64,000 nt of DNA from Somniosus microcephalus (taxonomy: Eukaryota): positions 6,696,001 through 6,760,000 of the forward strand of contig CM126225.1 of assembly GCA_052327205.1 (NCBI GenBank), in the 5' to 3' direction. Shown here piece by piece: positions 14,093 to 64,000 of this stretch. Every line of letters starts with the position of its first letter. Position 1 is the first letter of the stretch. The notes under the pieces were generated by a model. It made no database searches, was not told the DNA's origin, and saw only the letters and a list, made by a program, of their open reading frames with translations. Made by a program: the position numbers and the translations under genes.

Positions 14093-14340
14093 TTAAGGTG
14101 TGTTGGTTTTTACTTTCGCAATTACTTTCTTTTCCTTGACTCTCCTGTTTTGAAACCAGATGGTGATCTGCCGTTCGCTCAGGTTCGTAGCCGCCGAGAT
14201 CTTCCTTCTCTTGTCTTTCGTGATGAATTTATTTGTTGCATATTCCCTCTCCAGTTCTTTGAGTTGGACTTTGGTATAAGGGATCCTCTTCTTCCTTCCG
14301 CGCCGAAAGGAACTACCATCCTGTTGGTGCGCTGCAACAT
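14093..14340 (-). CDS. hoxb13: HoxB13 exon 2 (homeodomain); spliced CDS 924 nt = 307 aa
   Basis: [82 protein letters not shown] and the KV..KVK...TP end indicate B13 rather than A13/C13/D13. Acceptor CAG at 14343-14341; TAA at 14095-14093. Confidence 0.95.
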
Positions 14341-14783
14341 CTGCTGTGTGTAGCCAGACACACCCCGCCAAAAAAAAACACAAGACAAGCACATCAGAAA
14401 AATGTAACATTGGAAAATAATGTTGAAAAACGAATTAAACAACACGCTCATAATCAATAATTTTCAGTATCCAAAAGGAATACATTTAAATTAACTGATG
14501 TATCAAACGCTACTGGGTAATGCTGTAATGTGTATAATAATATTCCAAGGATTATAACTAAATCACAACACTAAATTTCGAATGATATTCCAACTGAGCT
14601 CCTTGCATCGGGAATATAAAATAAAATTGTACAATTTTCAATCCTGTTCTACATATCGGCATATTGTCAGAAATAAATCATTATCTTTCAGTTCCATAAG
14701 GCTTTTATGTTTCCAATATAATTAAATATGCAATTTTTTAGATGCTTATCCTTCTAGGAAGGAATGCAAAGGTCACTTGTTAC

Positions 14784-15459
14784 CTGCAAGTGTGGATTTC
14801 CAGAGGTGGCCCGGCTGTGCTTGTTCCTTAGAACAGTACATCTGGCTGTTCCAGCCATTGAGGGCCCAGGGCTGGTAGCCGTCCATAGGTAACAAGGCTT
14901 CGTGCCTCGGCTCTCCCGCGCCACTGATAGTCTGGACTACAGAAACATCTAGATAACTTGGCATTGGTTGGTAGGGACTCGCATAGCCGTGGTAAAAGGC
15001 GAATTCCTTAGGCCGCCCTGGATATTCATCGGTGGGGACAGGACTGTCCATGTACTTGTCTCCTGGGTAACTAGATAGGGCGGCAGGCTGGGTGCAAGGC
15101 TTGATGGAACTTCGCCCCATTCGACAGGAATAGTAGCCGCTGCCGAAATATCCGTATGGTAAAGGGGCGGCGGTGGAGGCCTGGGGCACCGGGCATGGGG
15201 TACATTGCTTGCCGGGCTCCACCACCCCAGAGCCGGAGACGTCGACTGTTGAGTAGCCAGAGCCGTGAACCAAAGGTGAAGGATGAGCCCCGAGCGCAGA
15301 GTGAGCCATTAAATTCCTGCACTGATTCGCAGAGAAATTCCCAGCACCAACAAATCCTTCCATTGCCCCGCTATTCTTATTAATCTCATCCGAGTTGTTT
15401 TCATACAGGAACATTACAGTGTCGACCCAGCGCGGTTTGAGAAGCAGTGACACTGTCAT
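14784..15459 (-). CDS. hoxb13: HoxB13 exon 1 (676 nt, phase-1 intron follows)
   Basis: [24 protein letters not shown]...[16 protein letters not shown]...KEFAFY...[16 protein letters not shown]...YCSKEQ...HLWKSTLA has the PG13 N-terminal motifs. Donor GCAG|GTAACA at 14784/14783. Confidence 0.96.
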
Positions 15460-28110: not shown

Positions 28111-28424
28111 TAAAATTCATGAGGGAGAGAAAAATTGCTCAAGTTGTTATGTGTGGCCTCATTGCAGATGCGTTCAATTCCTCTTCCCGTTAGTTCTGGT
28201 GAAATTGTGAACACGTACTTTTAGCTTCAGTTTACACACTGTCCACGATCAACTGGGAGCCAATTGGTCTTGGGTTTGCTGCAATGATGACAGCTCGGTT
28301 ACACTTCTCCAAGAGTTAGGCAATTCAGATTTAACCAGCCGCCCTTCACTTTGAAGCCACCGTGTCAATATGGAATCAGATCGCTGGCCTGGCTCCTTGT
28401 TCCTAAAATAACAATTTGCATTTA

Positions 28425-35312: not shown

Positions 35313-35536
35313 TCTATCTATAGCACTGTTTATGCACAACACTCATAACACAGGTTTAGATACCAACAATACAAATAGAAATGTGATATAAGACCATTAG
35401 ACCCATCGAGTTCACCCCATCCAGGCATGGTGTAACTCGCACAGCATTTACCCAGAAAAACTCTAGCATTCCCCTCTGACTCCCTGAGACAATCAAGAAA
35501 AGCCCCGAGAGACTGTGGTTACCTGTAACTCCTCAG

Positions 35537-37278
35537 AAAAAGAAAAAAGATTGGTAAAGTCAAGCGTAGGTCCCTTGCAGTCAGAATCAGGGGAATTTAT
35601 AATGGGGAACAAAGACACGGCTGATCAATTAAATACATACTTTGGTTCTGTCTTCACAAAGGAGGACACAAATAAACTCCCAGAGATGTCGGGGAACATA
35701 GGGTCTGATGAAAGGGAGGAACTGAATGAAATCAGTATTTGTAGGGAAATGGTATTAGGGAAATTGACGGGATTGAAGGCCGATAAATCCCCAGGGCCTG
35801 ATAATCTACATCCTAGGGTACTTAAGGACGTGGCTCTAGAAATAGTAGATGCATTGCTGGTCATCTTCCAAATTTCTATAGACGCTGGAACAGGTCCCAT
35901 GGATTGGAGGGTGGCTAATGTAACCCCACTATTTAAAAAAGGTGGTAGAGAAAAAACAGGGAATTATAGAACGGTAAGCCTGACATCGGTAGTGGGGAAA
36001 ATGCTAGAGTCCATTATAAAAGATGTAATAGCAGAGCAGTTGGAAAACAGTGACAGGATCGGACAAAGTCAACATGGATTTACAAAAGGTAAATCATGCT
36101 TGACTAATCTACTGGAATTTTTTAAGGATGTAACTGGTAGAATAGATAAGGGAGAACCAGTGGATGTGGTGTATTTGGACTTTCAGAAGGCTTTCGATAA
36201 GGTCCCGCATAAGAGACTAGCGTGCAAAGTTAAAGCACATGGGATTTGGGTTAAGGTACTGACTTGGATAGAAAACTGGTTGGCAGACAGGAAGCAAAGA
36301 GTTGGAATATACAAGTCTTTTTCTGAGTGGCAGGCAGTGACTACTGGGGTACCGCAGGGATCAGTGCTAGGACCCCAGTTATTCACAATATATATTAATG
36401 ATCTAGACAAGGGAACTAGATGTAATATCTCCAAGTTTGCAGATGACACAAAGCTGGGTGGGCGTGTGTGCTGTGAGGAGGATGCCGAGAAATTCCAGTA
36501 TGATTTGGACAGGTTGGGCGATTGGGCAGATGTATGGCAGATGCAGTATATCTGAATGGCAATAGATTGGGAAAAGGGGAAGTGCAACGAGACCTGGGTG
36601 TCCTTGTGCACCAATCGCTGAAGGTAAGCATGCAGGTGCAGCAGATGGTTAAGAAGGCAAATGGTATGCTGGCCTTCATAGCGAGAGGATTCGAGTACAG
36701 GAGCAAGGATGTCTTGCTGCAGTTGTACAGGGCCTTGGTGAGACCACACCTTGAGTATTGTGTGCAGTTTTGGTCGCCTTATCTGAGGAAGGATGTTTGC
36801 CATGGAGGGAGTGCAGTGAAGATTCACCAAGCTGATACCTGGGATGGCAGGAATGACGTATGAGGAGAGATTGGGTCGATTAGGCTTATATTCACTAGAG
36901 TTTAGAAGAATGAGAGGGGATCGCATTGAAACTTATAAAATTCTAACAGGACTAGACAGACTAGATGCAGGAAGGCTGCTCCCGATGGCGGGGAAGTCAC
37001 GGTCTAAGGATAAGGGGTAAGCCATTTAGGACTGAGATGAGGAGGAATTTCTTCACCCAGAGAGTGGTGAACTTGAGGAATTCTCTACCACAGAAGACAG
37101 TTGAGGCCAATTCATTAAATATATTCAAGAAGGAGTTAGATATATTTCTTAAGGCTAAGGGGATCAAGGGATATGCGGAGAAAGCAGGGCCAGGGTATTG
37201 AATTTGGATGATCAGCCATGATCGCATTGAATGGCGGAGCAGGCTCGAGGGGCCGAATGACCTACTCCTGCTCCTATC
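35537..37278 (+). mobile_element. 5'-truncated CR1 LINE (RT domain plus 3' UTR)
   Basis: KSPGPD, VTPLFKKG, VYLDFQKAFDKVPH, GVPQGSVLGP and FADD motifs. Internal deletion near 36550. Ends in (CTATGTTT)n. Confidence 0.95.
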
Positions 37279-51260: not shown

Positions 51261-52849
51261 ACCCACCGAGAAACCCGTCTAGCTCTGGTTTGAAGAGTGC
51301 TAAAGATGTTAGAATGTTTGGGCATAAGGGATCGAATGGGTGGGGTACATAAAGGAAAACGATGCCCGGAGGAGCACCTACTATAACAGAGCCCATCCAA
51401 GTTAAATAGCTGCGGAATTAGCTGGGATCTATTGGGGCACGGAACCCTCTCTGCTCAACTTTTCTCTGTACTCTTTACCCAGGTAACACTTTACATTCAA
51501 GTCAAGCCAGATTTACAACGTTACCAGAGCATCGCTGAAACTCCCTTGAACGTGTTTTAACTACCTGACCTTAACTTCAATGTCAATATAACACTCTTGC
51601 TTTACACATACAGTATTTAAGTTTCTAGCAATTGAAAGAGATGCCTATATCAAGGCACCTACAGAGGTTTCGCCTGGATAGACAATTACAGTTTCAAAGA
51701 TACACAGCAACTGTTTACTGAAAAAATGTTTTTTTTTAAAAAACTCAGGAACTTGAAATTTCAGAAAAATCTCCTGGACTAGAAATGTTGTGGTTGGCGT
51801 TTATTCTTTGGCAGGCTGAAGCGGTACAAACACAGTCCTGCCTGGCTGGAACCCGAACTGTAGCTACCGCGCTCTGACCAGTAGCTGCAGTATCCTGGTA
51901 CTGACAACATGCTGTAGGTCAATGCACGGTAACTTTTGTTCAGCTCAAAGTTTTCTCTGTTGAAAATAGAACTATTTCTAGAGCTGTGCTTTTTATTTGA
52001 ATAGCCTTCGTCGGTTTACCCAAGCCAACAACATATTTCAACACATTGCAATAAGCCCAACATTTTGGTTTTATGTGGATTCAGTTTGTAGCGTCCATTG
52101 CTTCTGCCAATTAAACTACTTCAGCCGAGTGAAACAAGTGCCATCTGCCCTCATATATAACCGGGCCTGTGTCACGGGGAAATGATATTTCCTGGTCTCT
52201 GCAGAAATTATTCTTTTTACCTTAACAAGAACAATTAACATTAGTATTTCAAATACCAGCAATAGGTAGACACCATAATAATGCAACACAGATGAAGATT
52301 ACATAAAGAGGGAATGCTAACCAACAGCAATTCCGGTCCTGGAGATATTCCCTAAGATTCAAGCGCCTGGTTTTTTAAACTATTTTCCAGTAAATGTTTT
52401 CTGCCTCTAATGTCTATTTTTAAAAATATTATATTAAAGTTTATTTCCACCTAGTCAGGTGCCAATTTACCTCTAATTAAATAGCATCCTACAGGTAAAT
52501 CGCTATATGGGTATAATTTCATCTGTTACGCAATTAATTACACTTTAATTTCACGTGACCTTCGCATGAAATTCAGCAGTGTTCTTTCAATTTAACCCAG
52601 AGTCAATGTCAAAACAATGACAGCTTTGACGTATATGATTTTGAGTTGGGAGATGAATCTTTCGAAGGGGTTCATTCCCCCTTTCCCCATTCTTTCTCTG
52701 GCTGCTACCATATATCAGTGCTAGCCTATATGCCATTAATTCTCGGTTTCCTGGCACAATATGACCCAGTTGTACTAGGATTACTTTCTTATTTATAATA
52801 CAAACATTTAACCAGGGTGAAATACAAAGTAGTGCATTGTATTACAAAA

Positions 52850-55315: not shown

Positions 55316-56631
55316 TGCTAAGAAAATGTATAGGAATTGGAATGCAGGGAGCCAAGCATTAGATTGGTATTAGATGTGAATTTCCGTCTGTCCTTTGAGA
55401 AGAGCAAAACCCCTGCCTCTGGATCTAAAATCGGATTTGAAAAAATGAAAACAATCTGAAGACGCCGAGTTAATTATTAATGTCTGGAAAGCAAAACAGA
55501 AAACACAAATCTCCAAACCATCCTTAATATTACAATTAAAATATAAAAGTAATAAAAAAAATTTACTAAAATTAATGCGTCAAAGCGAGAGGGGCTTATA
55601 ATTCTCACCACACTTATTGCAGGAGAAATTCACGGGACAAAACAAAAGAGGAAAATAATCATTATCACGACAAAAAAAATCTGTGGAACCAGTTGAGGAA
55701 ATCCCATTATTGAAGCGATATATCATCCTTAGGATTTTTGTGAAATAAAAAGTTAATAGATTTTGAAACTTCATGTTGAGTTTGAATCTGAGTTTAAAAC
55801 CGGGAATAATCGTTAATATCGTGGAACCAACCCACATTCCTTCTCTCTGTTTTGGTGCAATCTGTTTGATATTTTGCTAACTTCAATCTGTATATTTTGT
55901 TTAATGAGTCTTGGGGAGACTGTGGGACTTTGAATTAAAAAACATGAAACATGTTCAATCTTTCCAAGACAAAAATTCAGATTGCTGAAATAAGAAAAAT
56001 TATATCGTAAAGGAAAGTATCTGACTTTTGAACTGTATCCTTCCCTTAGTCCTTTCTCTGTCACGCTCTCTCTCTCTCGCCCCCCCCCCCCCCCCACACA
56101 CACACACACAAATGCTGCGCTCATAGCAAGCAGATTATTATCACAGGGGTTTAAACAGTAGACGCGCTCCTTGTGACGAAGAAGTGATTGTTGCAATTCT
56201 GCCTTTAAGCGGGGCTGCGAAATTAGTCCTCAGCTGACGCTTCGGTGCGATATAAATGACGCATCGTGAGCGAATTATCTGATTGCTTAACAATTCCTCC
56301 TGAAAAAAATAAATCTTTAGAATTAGAGTGCCGACAGTATAGGCATCGTACAGATAAATATTGGGAGGAAGTATGCGCTCCAGATGACCATTTGATCAGA
56401 TAACGGGGACAGGTTTTACGGCGTGAGAACACCAGATACCCGAGTTTTAAAACAGACGGTACATCAAAGTGTTCGCGAATAGTGCGCAGAGTGAACTGCA
56501 ATGTTCGTGTTTAGAACTGAAACCATTTGCGACCCGTTTACATCGCACCAATATCCCGGGCGGGATATTTTCTAACTTTCCTTCTGATCTAAGGCATCTA
56601 AAAAAAAATTCCATTCACTTCTGTTCTGTAG

Positions 56632-59600
56632 TTATGGGGGAGCAAAGCAAAGGCTGTAAATTTCTTCTGGCACGACCCAATGCAGCAAATTGCCTGACCG
56701 CTTAACTTCCTCCTCGCTTGCAATAATGTTCTCCAAATACCCACCCTAACCAGAGAATCCACCCTGACCAGAGAATCCTCCCTGACCAGAGAATCCACCC
56801 TGACCAGAGAATCCACCCTGACCAGAGAATCCACCCTGACCAGAGAATCCACCCTAACCAGAGAATCCATCCTAACCAGAGAATCCACCCTAACCAGAGA
56901 ATCCACCCTGACCAGAGAATCCACCCTAACCAGAGAATCCACCCTGACCAGAGAATCCACCCTAACCAGAGAATCCACCCTGACCAGAGAATCCACCCTG
57001 ACCAGAGAATCCACCCTAACCAGAGAATCCACCCTAACCAGAGAATCCACCCTGACCAGAGAATCCTCCCTGACCAGAGAATCCACCCTGACCAGAGAAT
57101 CTACCCTAACCAGAGAATCCACCCTGACCAGAGAATCCACACTAACCAGAGAATCCACCCTGACCAGAGAATCCACACTAACCAGAAAATCCACCCTGAC
57201 CAGAGAATCCACCCTAACCAGAGAATCCACCCTGACCAGAGAATCCACCCTGACCAGAGAATCCACCCTGACCAGAGAATCCACCCTAACCAGAGAATCC
57301 ACCCTGACCAGAGAATCCACCCTAACCAGAGAATCCACCCTAACCAGAGAATCCACCCTGACCAGAGAATCCACCCTGACCAGAGAATCCACCCTAACCA
57401 GAGAATCCACCCTAACTAGAGAATCCACCCTGACCAGAGAATCCACCCTGACCAGAGAATCCACCCTAACCAGAGAATCCACCCTGACCAGAGAATCCAC
57501 CCTGACCAGAGAATCCACCCTAACCAGAGAATCCACCCTGACCAGAGAATCCACCCTAACCTGAGAATCCACCCTAACCAGAGAATCCACCCTAACTAGA
57601 GAATCCACCCTAACCAGAGAATCCACCCTAACCAGAGAATCCACCCTAACCAGAGAATCCACCCTGACCAGAGAATCCACCCTAACCAGAGAATACACCC
57701 TAACCAGAGAATCCACCCTGACCAGAGAATCCACCCTGACCAGAGAATCCACCCTAACCAGAGAATCCACCCTAACCAGAGATTCCACCCTAACCAGAGA
57801 TTCCACCCTGACCAGAGAATCCACCCTGACCAGAGAATCCACCCTGACCAGAGAATCCACCCTAACCAGAGAATCCACCCTAACCAGAGAATCCACCCGA
57901 ACCAGAGAATCCACCCTAACCAGAGAATCCACCCTGACCAGAGAATCCACCCTGACCAGAGAATCCACCCTGACCAGAGAATCCACCCTAACCAGAGATT
58001 CCACCCTAACCAGAGATTCCACCCTGACCAGAGAATCCACCCTGACCAGAGATTCCACCCTGACCTGAGAATCCACCCTGACCAGAGAATCCACCCTGAC
58101 CAGAGAATCCACCCTGACCTGAGAATCCACCCTGACCAGAGAATCCACCCTGACCAGAGAATCCACCCTGACCTGAGAATCCACCCTGACCAGAGATTCC
58201 ACCCTGACCAGAGAACCCACCCTGACCAGAGAATCCACCCTAACCAGAGAATCCACCCTGACCAGAGAATCCACCCTAACCAGAGAATCCACCCTGACCA
58301 GAGAATCCACCCTGACCAGAGAATCCACCCTGACCAGAGAATCCACCCTAACCAGAGAATCCACCCTGATCAGAGAATCCACCCTAACCAGAGAATCCAC
58401 TCTGACCAGAGAATGCACCCTAACCAGAGAATCCACCCTGACCAGAGAATCCACCCTGACCAGAGAATCCACCCTAACCAGAGAATCCACCCTAACTAGA
58501 GAATCCACCCTGACCAGAGAATCCACCCTGACCAGAGAATCCACCCTAACCAGAGAATCCACCCTGACCAGAGAATCCACCCTGACCAGAGAATCCACCC
58601 TGACCAGAGAATCCACCCTAACCAGAGAATCCACCCTGATCAGAGAATCCACCCTAACCAGAGAATCCACTCTGACCAGAGAATCCACCCTGACCAGAGA
58701 ATCCACCCTGACCAGAGAATCCACCCTGACCAGAGAATCCACCCTGACCAGAGAATCCACCCTGACCAGAGAATCCACCCTGACCAGAGAATCCACCCTA
58801 ACCTGAGAATCCACCCTAACCACAGAATCCACCCTAACTAGAGAATCCACCCTGACCAGAGAATCCACCCTGACCAGAGAATCCACCCTAACCAGAGAAT
58901 CGACCCTAACCAGAGAATCCACCCTGACCAGAGAATCCACCCTAACCAGAGAATCCACCCTAACCAGAGAATCCACCCTAACCAGAGAATCCACCCTGAC
59001 CAGAGAATCCACCCTGACCAGAGAATCCACCCTGACCAGAGAATGCACCCTGACCAGAGAATCCACCCTGACCAGAGAATCCACCCTAACCAGAGAATCC
59101 ACCCTGACCAGAGAATCCACCCTGACCAGAGAATCTACCCTGACCAGAGAATCCACCCTGACCAGATAATCCACCCTAACCAGAGAATCCACCCTGACCA
59201 GAGAATCCACACTAACCAGAAAATCCACCCTGACCAGAGAATCCACCCTAACCAGAGAATCCACCCTGACCAGAGAATCCATCCTGACCAGAGAACCCAC
59301 CCTGACCAGAGAATCCACCCTGACCAGAGAATCCACCCTGACCAGAGAATCCACCCTAACCAGAGAATCCACCCTGACCAGAGAATCCACCCTAACCAGA
59401 GAATCCACCCTAACAAGAGAATCCACCCTGACCAGAGAATCCACCCTAACTAGAGAATCCACCCTGACCAGAGAATCCACCCTGACCAGAGAATCCACCC
59501 TAACCAGAGAATCCACCCTGACCAGAGAATCCACCCTAACCTGAGAATCCACCCTAACCAGAGAATCCACCCTGACCAGAGAATCCACCCTGACCAGAGA

Positions 59601-60536
59601 ATCCACCCTAACCAGAGAATCCACCCTAACCAGAGAATCCACCCTGACCAGAGAATCCACCCTAACCAGAGAATCCACCCTAACCAGAGAATCCACCCTG
59701 ACCAGAGAATCCACCCTAACCAGAGAATCCACCCTAACCAGAGATTCCACCCTAACCAGAGAATCCACCCTGACCAGAGAATCCACCCTGACCAGAGAAT
59801 GCACCCTAACCAGAGAATCCACCCTAACCAGAGAATCCACCCTGACCAGAGAATTCACCCTGACCAGAGAATCCACCCTGACCTGAGAATCCACCCTGAC
59901 CAGAGATTCCACCCTAACCAGAGAATCCACCCTGACCAGAGAATCCACCCTGACCAGAGAATCCACCCTAACCAGAGAATCCACCCTAACCAGAGAATCC
60001 ACCCTGACCAGAGAATCCACCCTGACCAGAGAATCCACCCTGACCAGAGAATCCACCCTAACCAGAGAATCCACCCTGACCAGAGAATCCACCCTAACCT
60101 GAGAATCCACCCTGACCAGAGAATCCACCCTGACCAGAGAATCCACCCTGACCAGAGAATCCACCCTAACCAGAGAATCCACCCTGACCAGAGAATCCAC
60201 CATGACCAGAGAATCCACCCTAACCAGAGAATCCACCCTGACCAGAGAATCCACCCTGACCAGAGAATCCACCCTAACCAGAGAATCCACCCTGACCAGA
60301 GAATCCACCCTGACCAGAGAATCCACCCTGACCAGAGAATCCACCCTGACCAGAGAATCCACCCTAACCAGAGAATCCACCCTGACCAGAGAATCCACCC
60401 TAACCAGAGAATCCACCCTGACCAGAGAATCCACCCTGACCAGAGAATCCACCCTGACCAGAGAATCCACCCTGACCAGAGAATCCACCCCGGAAATTTG
60501 CCAAGGATTCCCAGCAATAGTTTTGCAGAAAGACAA
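56632..60536 (+). pseudogene. hoxb14: Hox14-like pseudogene exon 2 (homeobox to Q44), split by a 3.75-kb minisatellite
   Basis: Polypyrimidine tract with TAG acceptor at 56631, then EQSKGC (RQRKKR) and P-N..QQIA at 56683-56694 (PYSKQQIAE). After the array, TPEICQ-IPSNSFAERQ at 60487-60536 matches recalled Hox14 TPEV/IRLNISFKLGLTERQ. The match ends at ERQ, where Hox14 genes have their homeobox intron. Confidence 0.65.
56741..60490. repeat. 18-bp minisatellite (ACCAGAGAATCCACCCT[A/G])n, ~208 copies
   Basis: Near-perfect tandem array visible directly; it generates the spurious VRVDSL, HPDQRI and TLTRES ORFs. Confidence 0.98.
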
Positions 60537-61146
60537 TCAAACGAGTGAATAATGGTTTTAAAAGGTTAATTACGACCATCATTTTCTAACCTCGGTTCCT
60601 CTCTGCTCGTCGCCCCTCTCTATCTCTACTTCTATCACTCTGGTATCTCCTCTCTCGGTTCTATTCCATTCTGCTCCCTAGACTTTATTTCTATTTCTAG
60701 CCTCTCATTGTGTCAAACCTCTCTAATTTTGCTCTAGATTTTTCTTTCCAGTCTCTCTCTGTTAAGACTCTCTTTAATTTCCCTCTAGTCTGTCTTTGTC
60801 TAGCCGCTCTTTCGTTTCTCTTTCTCTAGTCTTTCCGTCTGCTCGCTCAATCTTTCTAGTCTTTAGCACATGCGAAGCAAAGCTATTTTAATATTATTAT
60901 TTTATTTCAAGGATACGGTATCGAGTTGTAGTTAAAAAAAATCATAACTAATGAATTACTGTGGGCTGAAATGCTCATCGTTTGCACAGAATGAGTCTCA
61001 GCGCTCACTTTTAAACTCAGGTACATTGGGCCAGAGGCGGATAGGGAGACTGCAAAATCACATGATAAATCTGTTTTTTTGTGTGAATATATCGAGTACA
61101 ATCATTGCGGTCCTCAAACAACAATCAATTGATGTAAACAGTCTGA

Positions 61147-61461
61147 NNNNNNNNNNNNNNNNNNNNNNNNNNNNNNNNNNNNNNNNNNNNNNNNNNNNNN
61201 NNNNNNNNNNNNNNNNNNNNNNNNNNNNNNNNNNNNNNNNNNNNNNNNNNNNNNNNNNNNNNNNNNNNNNNNNNNNNNNNNNNNNNNNNNNNNNNNNNNN
61301 NNNNNNNNNNNNNNNNNNNNNNNNNNNNNNNNNNNNNNNNNNNNNNNNNNNNNNNNNNNNNNNNNNNNNNNNNNNNNNNNNNNNNNNNNNNNNNNNNNNN
61401 NNNNNNNNNNNNNNNNNNNNNNNNNNNNNNNNNNNNNNNNNNNNNNNNNNNNNNNNNNNNN
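61147..61461. other. Assembly gap (315 N)
   Basis: Run of N. Confidence 0.99.
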
Positions 61462-62469: not shown

Positions 62470-64000
62470 TCAGTGATCCAATCCATTTACACAGAATTCC
62501 AGTGATCCAATCCAATTGTACAGAATTCCAGTGATCCAATCCAATTGCACAGAATTCCAGTGATCCAATCCAATTTTACAGAATTCCAGTGATCCAATCC
62601 AATTGCACAGAATTTCAGTGATCCAATCCAATTGCACAGAATTCCAGTGATCCAATCCAATTGCAGAGAATTCCAGTGATTCAATCCAATTGTACAGAAT
62701 TCCAGTGACTCAATCCAAATGTACAGAATTCCACTGATCCAATCCAATTGTACAGAATTCCAGTGATCCAATCCAATTGTACAGAATTCTAGTCATCCAA
62801 CCCAATTTGTACAGAATTCCAGTGATGCAATCCAATTGTACAGAATTCCAGTGATCCAATCCAATTGTACAGAATTCTAGTGATCCAATTCAATTGTACA
62901 GAATTCCAGTGATCCAATCCAATTGAACAGAATTCCACTGATCCAATACATTTGCACAGAATTCCAGTGACTCAATTCAATTGTACAGAATTCCAGTGAC
63001 TCAATCTAATTGTACAGAATTCCAGTGATCCAATCCAATTGTACAGAATTCCAGTGATCCAATCCAATTGTACAGAATTCCAGTGATCCAATCCAATTGT
63101 ACAAAATTCCAGAGATCCAATCCAATTGTACAGAATTCCAGTGACTCAATCCAATTGTACAGAATTCCAGTAACACAATCTAATTGTACAGAATTCCAGT
63201 GACCCAATCCAATTGTACAGAATTCCAGTGATCCAATCCAATTGTACAGAATTCCAGTAACTCAATCCAATTGTACAGAATTACAGGGACTCAATCCAAT
63301 TGCACAGAATTCCAGTAATCCAACCTAATTTTACAGAATTCCAGTGATCCAATCCATTTGCACAGAATTCCGGCGACTCAATCCAATTGTACAGAATTCC
63401 CATGATCCAATCCAATTGTACAGAATTACAGTGATCCAATCCAATTGTACAGAATTACAGTGACCCAATCCAATTGTACAGAATTCCAGTGATCCAATCT
63501 AATTGCACACAATTCCAGTGACACAATCCAATTGCACAGAATTCCAGTGATCCAATCCAATTGTACAGAATTCCAGTGAGCCAATCCAATTGCACAGAAT
63601 TCCAGTGACTCAATCCAATTGTACAGAATTCCAGTGATCCAATCCAATGGTACAGAATTCCAGTGACTGAATCCAACTGTACAGAATTCCAGTGACTCAA
63701 TCCAATTGTACAGAATCCAGTGATCCAATTAAATTGTACAGAATTCCAGTGATTCAATCCAATTGCACAGAATTCCAGTGACTCAATCCAATTGTACAGA
63801 ATTCCAGTGATCCAATCCAATTGTAAAGAATTCCAGTGACTCAATTCAATTGTACAGAATTCCAGTGACTCAATCCAATTGTACAGAATTCCAGTGATCC
63901 AATTCAATTGTAAAGAATTCCAGTGATCCAATCCAATTGTACAGAATTCCAGTGATCCAATCCAAATGTACAGAATTCCAGTGATCCAATCCAATTGTAC
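62470..64000. repeat. 29-bp tandem satellite (CAGAATTCCAGTGATCCAATCCAATTGTA)n, running off the window end
   Basis: About 50 more diverged copies, most with GAATTC and CAATTG. Confidence 0.96.

Follow-up and report, generated by a model that had tools for sequence, protein, structure and literature searches.

An 18-bp minisatellite within a probable HoxB14 pseudogene at the 5′ end of a shark HoxB cluster

Based on its sole intact homeobox gene, the 64,000-bp stretch of DNA analyzed here (hereafter, the window) is assigned to a shark HoxB cluster, specifically its 5′ end, because exon 1 of this Hox13 gene shows higher identity to shark HoxB13 (93%) than to ray HoxA13 (64%). The same values overrule the HoxA13 identity suggested by a Pfam HoxA13_N match. 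A Hox14-like remnant that encloses an 18-bp tandem repeat was found 37–45 kb past the HoxB13 start (Table 1), i.e., 5′ of Hox13, with no assembly gap between the two. The intervening region at 28400–53400 contains many retroelement-like copies in both orientations, a possible substrate for inversion, with a reverse-transcriptase-like frame (read by eye) at 35488–36552. A total of 56 inverted-repeat pairs were identified; among the 25 listed, transposon-like copies occur in both orientations and none marks a breakpoint. On the other side, 2 kb from the 18-bp array, a second tandem array (62471–64000; 29-bp unit, 52.8 copies, 89% matches) runs off the window end and is not among the top matches to a Hox14 exon 3 profile. 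The two arrays are separated by an assembly gap (61147–61461; 315 N), and a further Hox14 exon 3 remnant could lie there or beyond the window.

Table 1 Features of the HoxB13–Hox14 region, in window coordinates
Feature	Positions	Strand	Remark
Intact HoxB13, two exons	14093..15459	-	landmark for cluster and orientation
TATA-like box	52154..52160	+	22-28 bases upstream of ATG; weak, almost no leader left
Likely exon 1 start, ATG with M-I-F-P-G	52182..52215	+	identical to coelacanth and Australian lungfish HoxA14
Probable left remnant, Hox14 residues 124-151 just before the homeobox (G-T-T..L-N-F..V-L-Q-I)	56665..56740	+	frameshifts and stop
18-bp minisatellite, 208 units + 6 bp	56741..60490	+	stands in place of Hox14 residues 152-177 (homeodomain 1-26)
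Terminal 14-mer with T-P-E-I codons (homeodomain 27-30), putative parent of the unit	60485..60498	+	12/14 identical to ATT-type unit minus 4 bases
Probable right homeobox remnant, residues 178-202 (T-P-E-I..E-R-Q, then V-K-I-W-F-Q-N-like bases)	60487..60563	+	frameshifts and stop
8-base insert at homeodomain 44/45 junction, presumed site of the Hox14 second intron	60537..60544	+	intron apparently collapsed or lost

The array holds 208 complete units of 18 bp, all in register, and a further 6 bp, with 94% matches and 0% indels. A search of the whole window for the unit pattern (≤3 mismatches) returned 208 matches, compared to a chance expectation of 0.13. All 208, of which 200 are listed individually, are accounted for within the array, and no copies exist elsewhere in the window. 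Head-to-tail units of 10–60 bp with interspersed variants define a minisatellite, and the array is one. It is not an interstitial telomeric sequence, which would be a hexamer run, because each 18-bp unit contains a single hexamer-like stretch. The mean G4Hunter score (0.78) is unremarkable, a search of Rfam gave 0 matches, and viral contigs contained seven single unit matches and no arrays, which is roughly the chance level by our estimate. An open frame of 1312 codons on the minus strand (60536–56601) spans the whole array; by inspection, no unit codon becomes a stop by a single-base change, so the length of this frame is explained by the unit codons and is not evidence of coding.

To describe variation within the array, we compared all units. 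There are 27 unit variants, the two main types accounting for 104 and 58 copies. Position 8 of the unit is dimorphic (124 G, 84 A; n = 208), and 46/208 units are changed at another position (1.4% per base outside position 8). Five rare alleles, all distinct, reappear after 113 units, which only 13 of 2000 shuffles reach, and smaller recurring sets occur at spacings of 15 and 60 units. Rare-variant blocks number two, compared to a shuffle mean of 0.2, whereas the longest repeated block (nine units) was equaled by 102/300 shuffles, a weaker test without significance. Of the two block tests, one therefore supports block-wise expansion, as do the rare-variant blocks. The unit length and copy number of about 208, the recurring variant patterns, and the block-wise expansion had all been proposed in an earlier sequence-only reading, and hold.

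The sequences on both sides of the array were compared to three HoxA14 proteins, fourteen chondrichthyan HoxD14-type proteins (as a profile), and cyclostome Hox14. The decisive alignment used a nucleotide-level profile fixed to the edges of the array. With coelacanth HoxA14 on the plus strand, 6/6 parameter sets place the end of the left flank at residue 151 and the start of the right flank at residue 178. The joint flank p-value was <1e-4 to 0.036 across gap settings (20000 random flank pairs, 1723 null breakpoints), and the minus-strand control gave 0.44–0.80. Among 160 homeodomain proteins, two HoxA14 ranked 1 and 2 (z = 5.3 and 4.8; best decoy: 3.07), and lamprey Hox14 ranked 7. The A14 profile fits the flanks (p = 0.00015–0.029) and places the 151|178 breakpoint in all three A14 settings, whereas the shark D14 profile does not (p = 0.10–0.50), indicating that the remnant is not a copy of the living HoxD14. 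Single pieces are weak and depend on the gap penalty (left flank: p = 0.0003–0.15; right flank without T-P-E-I: p = 0.015–0.12; single flanks with stiff gaps: p up to 0.15–0.3), and the residue windows of some tests were picked after the alignment had been seen.

At the array, the remnant lacks about 26 codons (Hox14 residues 152–177), which would encode the N-terminal arm and helix 1. Further downstream, W-F is followed by a stop (60553–60561) in the position of the helix 3 motif WFQNQR; because this motif is lost and the match ends at residue 202, the region was classed as a decayed remnant and not as a gene. ENRFLTPE is given as a Hox14 motif in a primer table of PMC3038165. The window contains 10 exact T-P-E sites, among them that at 60487, where the gapped full motif ties for the best score with unrelated sites. 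Taken together, ordered similarity to Hox14 above that to other homeobox genes is combined with stops and frameshifts, as in a Hox14-derived pseudogene, and the presence of one at the array is very probable. The sequence-only reading had recognized a dead homeobox, and the array does lie inside a decayed Hox14, but the opposite strand and the ~26 missing codons had been overlooked.

No match at the array was returned by tblastn or by protein-level frameshift alignment with real Hox14 proteins, by Pfam and PDB searches, or by the HoxB13 homeodomain as a proxy query, and a protein search over 50% representatives found no Hox14 among the best 150. The early view that a homeobox origin was unlikely, based on the HoxB13 proxy, was reversed by real Hox14 sequences. 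Most Hox14 proteins in the database (P0174, P0175, P0183–P0199) carry automatic misnomers (e.g., Hox-D12-like, Hox-B9a-like, hhex-like) despite their WFQNQR motif. Bases at 56430–56452 resemble H-Q-I-x-E of Hox14 helix 1 (residue 169); lying 300 bases upstream of the left remnant, this match is out of order and was treated as chance. No further remnants of exon 1 or exon 3 were found in the window.

The likely start of exon 1 lies 4.5 kb upstream of the left remnant on the same strand. Its ATG is the best of 1983 in the window (19.4 bits; next: 12.2 bits), with a chance expectation of 0.0025 per 10 kb of one strand and 0.03 for the whole window, and exon 1 beyond M-I-F-P-G is unrecognizable. 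Between this start and the left remnant, a CpG-rich stretch (56100–56330) with a TATA-like ATATAAAT at about 56250 follows a CT/C/CA microsatellite and is present in organisms B–D of the comparison below; it could be a regulatory element within intron 1 of the remnant. Genes of a Hox cluster generally share one strand. Hox14 is drawn accordingly in figure legends of PMC3509897, and in this assembly the remnant lies on the plus strand and HoxB13 on the minus strand. If the assembly is right, the remnant, which faces away from HoxB13, implies a local inversion of one of the two with respect to the other. The second intron of Hox14 is presumably located between homeodomain residues 44 and 45. An intron that splits the Hox14 homeobox is described in passages of PMC3707753 and PMC8423624, and at the corresponding junction the remnant holds only 8 bases without GT-AG ends. 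Since these bases sit at the intron site, the homeobox intron seems to have been lost or to have collapsed to 8 bp; the evidence is modest, with the exon-3-like bases that follow in the top 1.7% of 4239 tiles.

We refer the remnant to HoxB14 because of its position adjoining HoxB13. An Evx remnant, considered owing to the strand, was set aside solely on the ground that Hox14 accounts for both flanks. The best-fitting living proteins are coelacanth and lungfish HoxA14 (P0174, P0175, P0182), which have in common with the remnant M-I-F-P-G, L-N-F and V-L-Q-I before the homeobox, and T-P-E-I followed by R-Q-like codons. These are intact three-exon genes of HoxA clusters, whereas the remnant is non-coding and lies beside HoxB13. 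According to the parts of the literature available to us, pseudogenes of A14 and B14 are reported from the elephant shark (PMC3707753), other chondrichthyan group-14 pseudogenes are mentioned in PMC3509897, and hoxb14 is inferred to have been lost in bony vertebrates (PMC7269910). The remnant resembles the elephant shark pseudogenes as described in passages of PMC3707753 and PMC3509897 in being a decayed group-14 sequence 5′ of Hox13, and differs in being located in a shark HoxB cluster opposite to HoxB13, with a homeobox split by a 3.7-kb minisatellite and an apparently collapsed intron. The hoxd14 pseudogenes of bowfin and gar are likewise dead Hox14 copies at the 5′ end of a cluster, but the bowfin copy retains WFQNQR and the split junction and is transcribed (PMC8423624, in part), whereas both motif and junction are decayed in the shark remnant.

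Judging from its alignment with the array edge, the 18-bp unit most likely arose in place from codons of the homeobox. The last unit runs into ACC CCG GAA ATT at 60487–60498, as had been noted before, and removal of 4 bases leaves a unit with the codons T-P-E-I (ATT type) or T-P-E-N. Directly beyond the array, 8 bases agree in register with the tail of the unit at 6/8 positions (chance: 0.010; any gap length: 0.084). In a profile test against shuffles, codons 177–181 matched the unit at only p = 0.06–0.17, compared to 0.35–0.73 for the whole missing stretch (residues 152–177). T-P-E is invariant in 21/21 aligned Hox14 proteins and, at the array edge, in frame with the remainder of the remnant, so that the step from codons to unit is the simpler direction. 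A contig of organism C contains, in register inside the array, a 6-base unit start plus the 8 letters CAGAAATT and then another unit, i.e., a 14-bp unit that is one CpG-type change from the terminal 14-mer of the window; alternatively, this short unit may have arisen later, when an 18-mer lost 4 bases. The sequence-only reading had aligned the unit to residues 172–179 (N-R-F-L-T; p = 0.05–0.27 against shuffles). Its in-place homeobox origin remains the most likely, but the unit appears to fit the T-P-E-I codons plus a 4-base insert better than that alignment.

To date the array, related organisms were compared. Part of the region is held by 13 listed runs, from five studies and five coded organisms, and relatives were compared on the left flank in 4/19 listed runs. 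All three related organisms (B, C, and D) run from the same flank into the repeat. Organism B shows 4 differences in 656 bases of left flank and continues 30 bases into the repeat, organism C shows 31 differences and 12 gap bases and contains about six units to the contig end, and organism D shows 32 differences and 21 gap bases and reaches 16 bases into the repeat. Other repeat-bearing records of organism D, with 20 pieces outside the listing, are not physically tied to the flank. The units differ among organisms: T at unit position 17 has a depth of 159/227 in organism D, is mixed in C, absent in B, and present in 8/208 units of the window, and the ATT-ending type is common in C and D and likewise limited to 8/208 in the window. 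None of nine records of organism B runs on into unlike sequence, and the listed loose ends beside the array in organism D are unit-like, although short contigs limit what either implies about other loci. Summed contig depth of unit vs. flank is ~190x in B and 30x in D, which is not a copy number.

Flank divergence reaches about 5% among these organisms. At the mutation rate of 7e-10 per generation given for another shark in PMC10587355 (95% interval 1.4–14e-10), this corresponds to about 35 million generations per lineage, a rough figure and not a recent date. Because B, C, and D all pass from the same flank into the repeat, the array is, on this comparison, older than the splits of organisms A–D, and its units have turned over since. 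The prediction of one or few copies in relatives therefore fails: no single-copy version exists in B, C, or D, which refutes recency and not birth in place. Of the recent expansion proposed earlier, turnover is recent and block-wise, but the origin is not. No relative without the array was found among B, C, and D, so its birth was not observed directly.

The best explanation of these data, and in our view a fairly probable one, is that a neutral minisatellite arose in situ within a HoxB14 pseudogene. If the dead Hox14 is real, the unit could still be foreign or made by repair: 78 bases would have been lost at a break, and filler, telomere-like or of another kind, would have been inserted and then amplified. 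The array stands exactly where the 26 codons are missing, and the 4-base insert creates, in the A-type unit, an 8-base match to the hexameric telomere repeat of vertebrates that 0.9% of shuffles reach. However, this test was post hoc and each unit holds one hexamer and not a run, and both the 12/14 identity to the adjoining T-P-E-I 14-mer, in register, and the 14-bp unit of organism C argue against filler, which we consider unlikely; in a hybrid account, only the 4-base insert may be telomere-like. Amplification in place of residues 172–179 (N-R-F-L-T-P), the version of the sequence-only reading, has the merit that six codons make 18 bases, that p is 0.05–0.07 in the best settings, and that E-N-R can be aligned to the last unit across a 7-base gap. 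It requires several indels, reaches p-values of up to 0.27 in other settings, and leaves the 14-bp unit of organism C unexplained, making it very unlikely.

Two alternatives concern the remnant instead of the unit. An ordinary intergenic minisatellite, with flanks that resemble Hox14 by chance, would agree with the empty tblastn, protein-level frameshift, Pfam, and PDB searches, with the strand opposite to HoxB13, and with the single-flank p-values under stiff gaps. We give it little credence given three ordered matches on one strand, the 151|178 breakpoint in 6/6 anchored and 3/3 A14 settings, and HoxA14 at ranks 1–2 of 160, in the position expected of a HoxB14 remnant. The exon 2–3 part could also be a partly processed Hox14 mRNA that was retrocopied and inserted backwards, in place of an inverted native gene, as the opposite strand and the mere 8 bases at the homeobox intron site might suggest. 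Intron 2 is apparently lost, as in processed pseudogenes, yet the likely exon 1 start is retained on the same strand, at a distance of 4.5 kb upstream, and the remnant does not fit shark HoxD14, which would be the candidate for a living donor, so the chance of a retrocopy is slim.

Under the preferred explanation, a neutral minisatellite born inside the HoxB14 pseudogene, HoxB14 would have died, leaving the stops and frameshifts seen today, and the remnant would have come to the strand opposite HoxB13, where this assembly places it, by local inversion. The ~26 codons now missing would then have been deleted, 14 bases around T-P-E-I duplicated in tandem, and one 14-bp copy would have gained 4 bases in the Pro codon to give the 18-mer. 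Before organisms A–D split, the 18-mer would have spread in blocks of up to about 113 units, the spacing observed, presumably by slippage and unequal exchange or gene conversion. Turnover would be continuing, the ATT-ending type having been reduced to its present few units in the window. The array is probably functionless and neutral, which is favored because it can be explained without any function. RNA run X14 yielded 0 reads from ~24% of the run, too small a share to judge expression. It is highly doubtful that the remnant, inverted and already without its homeobox intron, carries a T-P-E-I minisatellite that has persisted over tens of millions of years because it serves the 5′ HoxB end as a boundary or silencing element.

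Single-locus minisatellites with interspersed variant units are a known class. The array is like them in its 18-bp unit, kilobase length, block-duplication variant map, and turnover between species, and unlike them generally in that a parent sequence, probably four homeobox codons, can be named. Our literature search brought up no account of a HoxB14 remnant in sharks, of the orientation of such a remnant, or of the array. A prior description is possible, since the search did not extend to the primary papers (Powers and Amemiya 2004, Ravi 2009, Feiner 2011), of which the first two may state the orientation and structure of Hox14 pseudogenes.

The remnant suggests that an inversion took place and that the homeobox intron was lost, a combination that could cause colinear alignments to overlook it. 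To our knowledge, HoxB14 has no living member, and thus every remnant of it documents the Hox set of ancestral jawed vertebrates, to which the shark remnant would add a start and traces of exon 2. A minisatellite with a nameable unit parent and turnover traceable across species would make the birth of a minisatellite testable by wider sampling of sharks, and the array would mark the remains of a lost body-plan gene.
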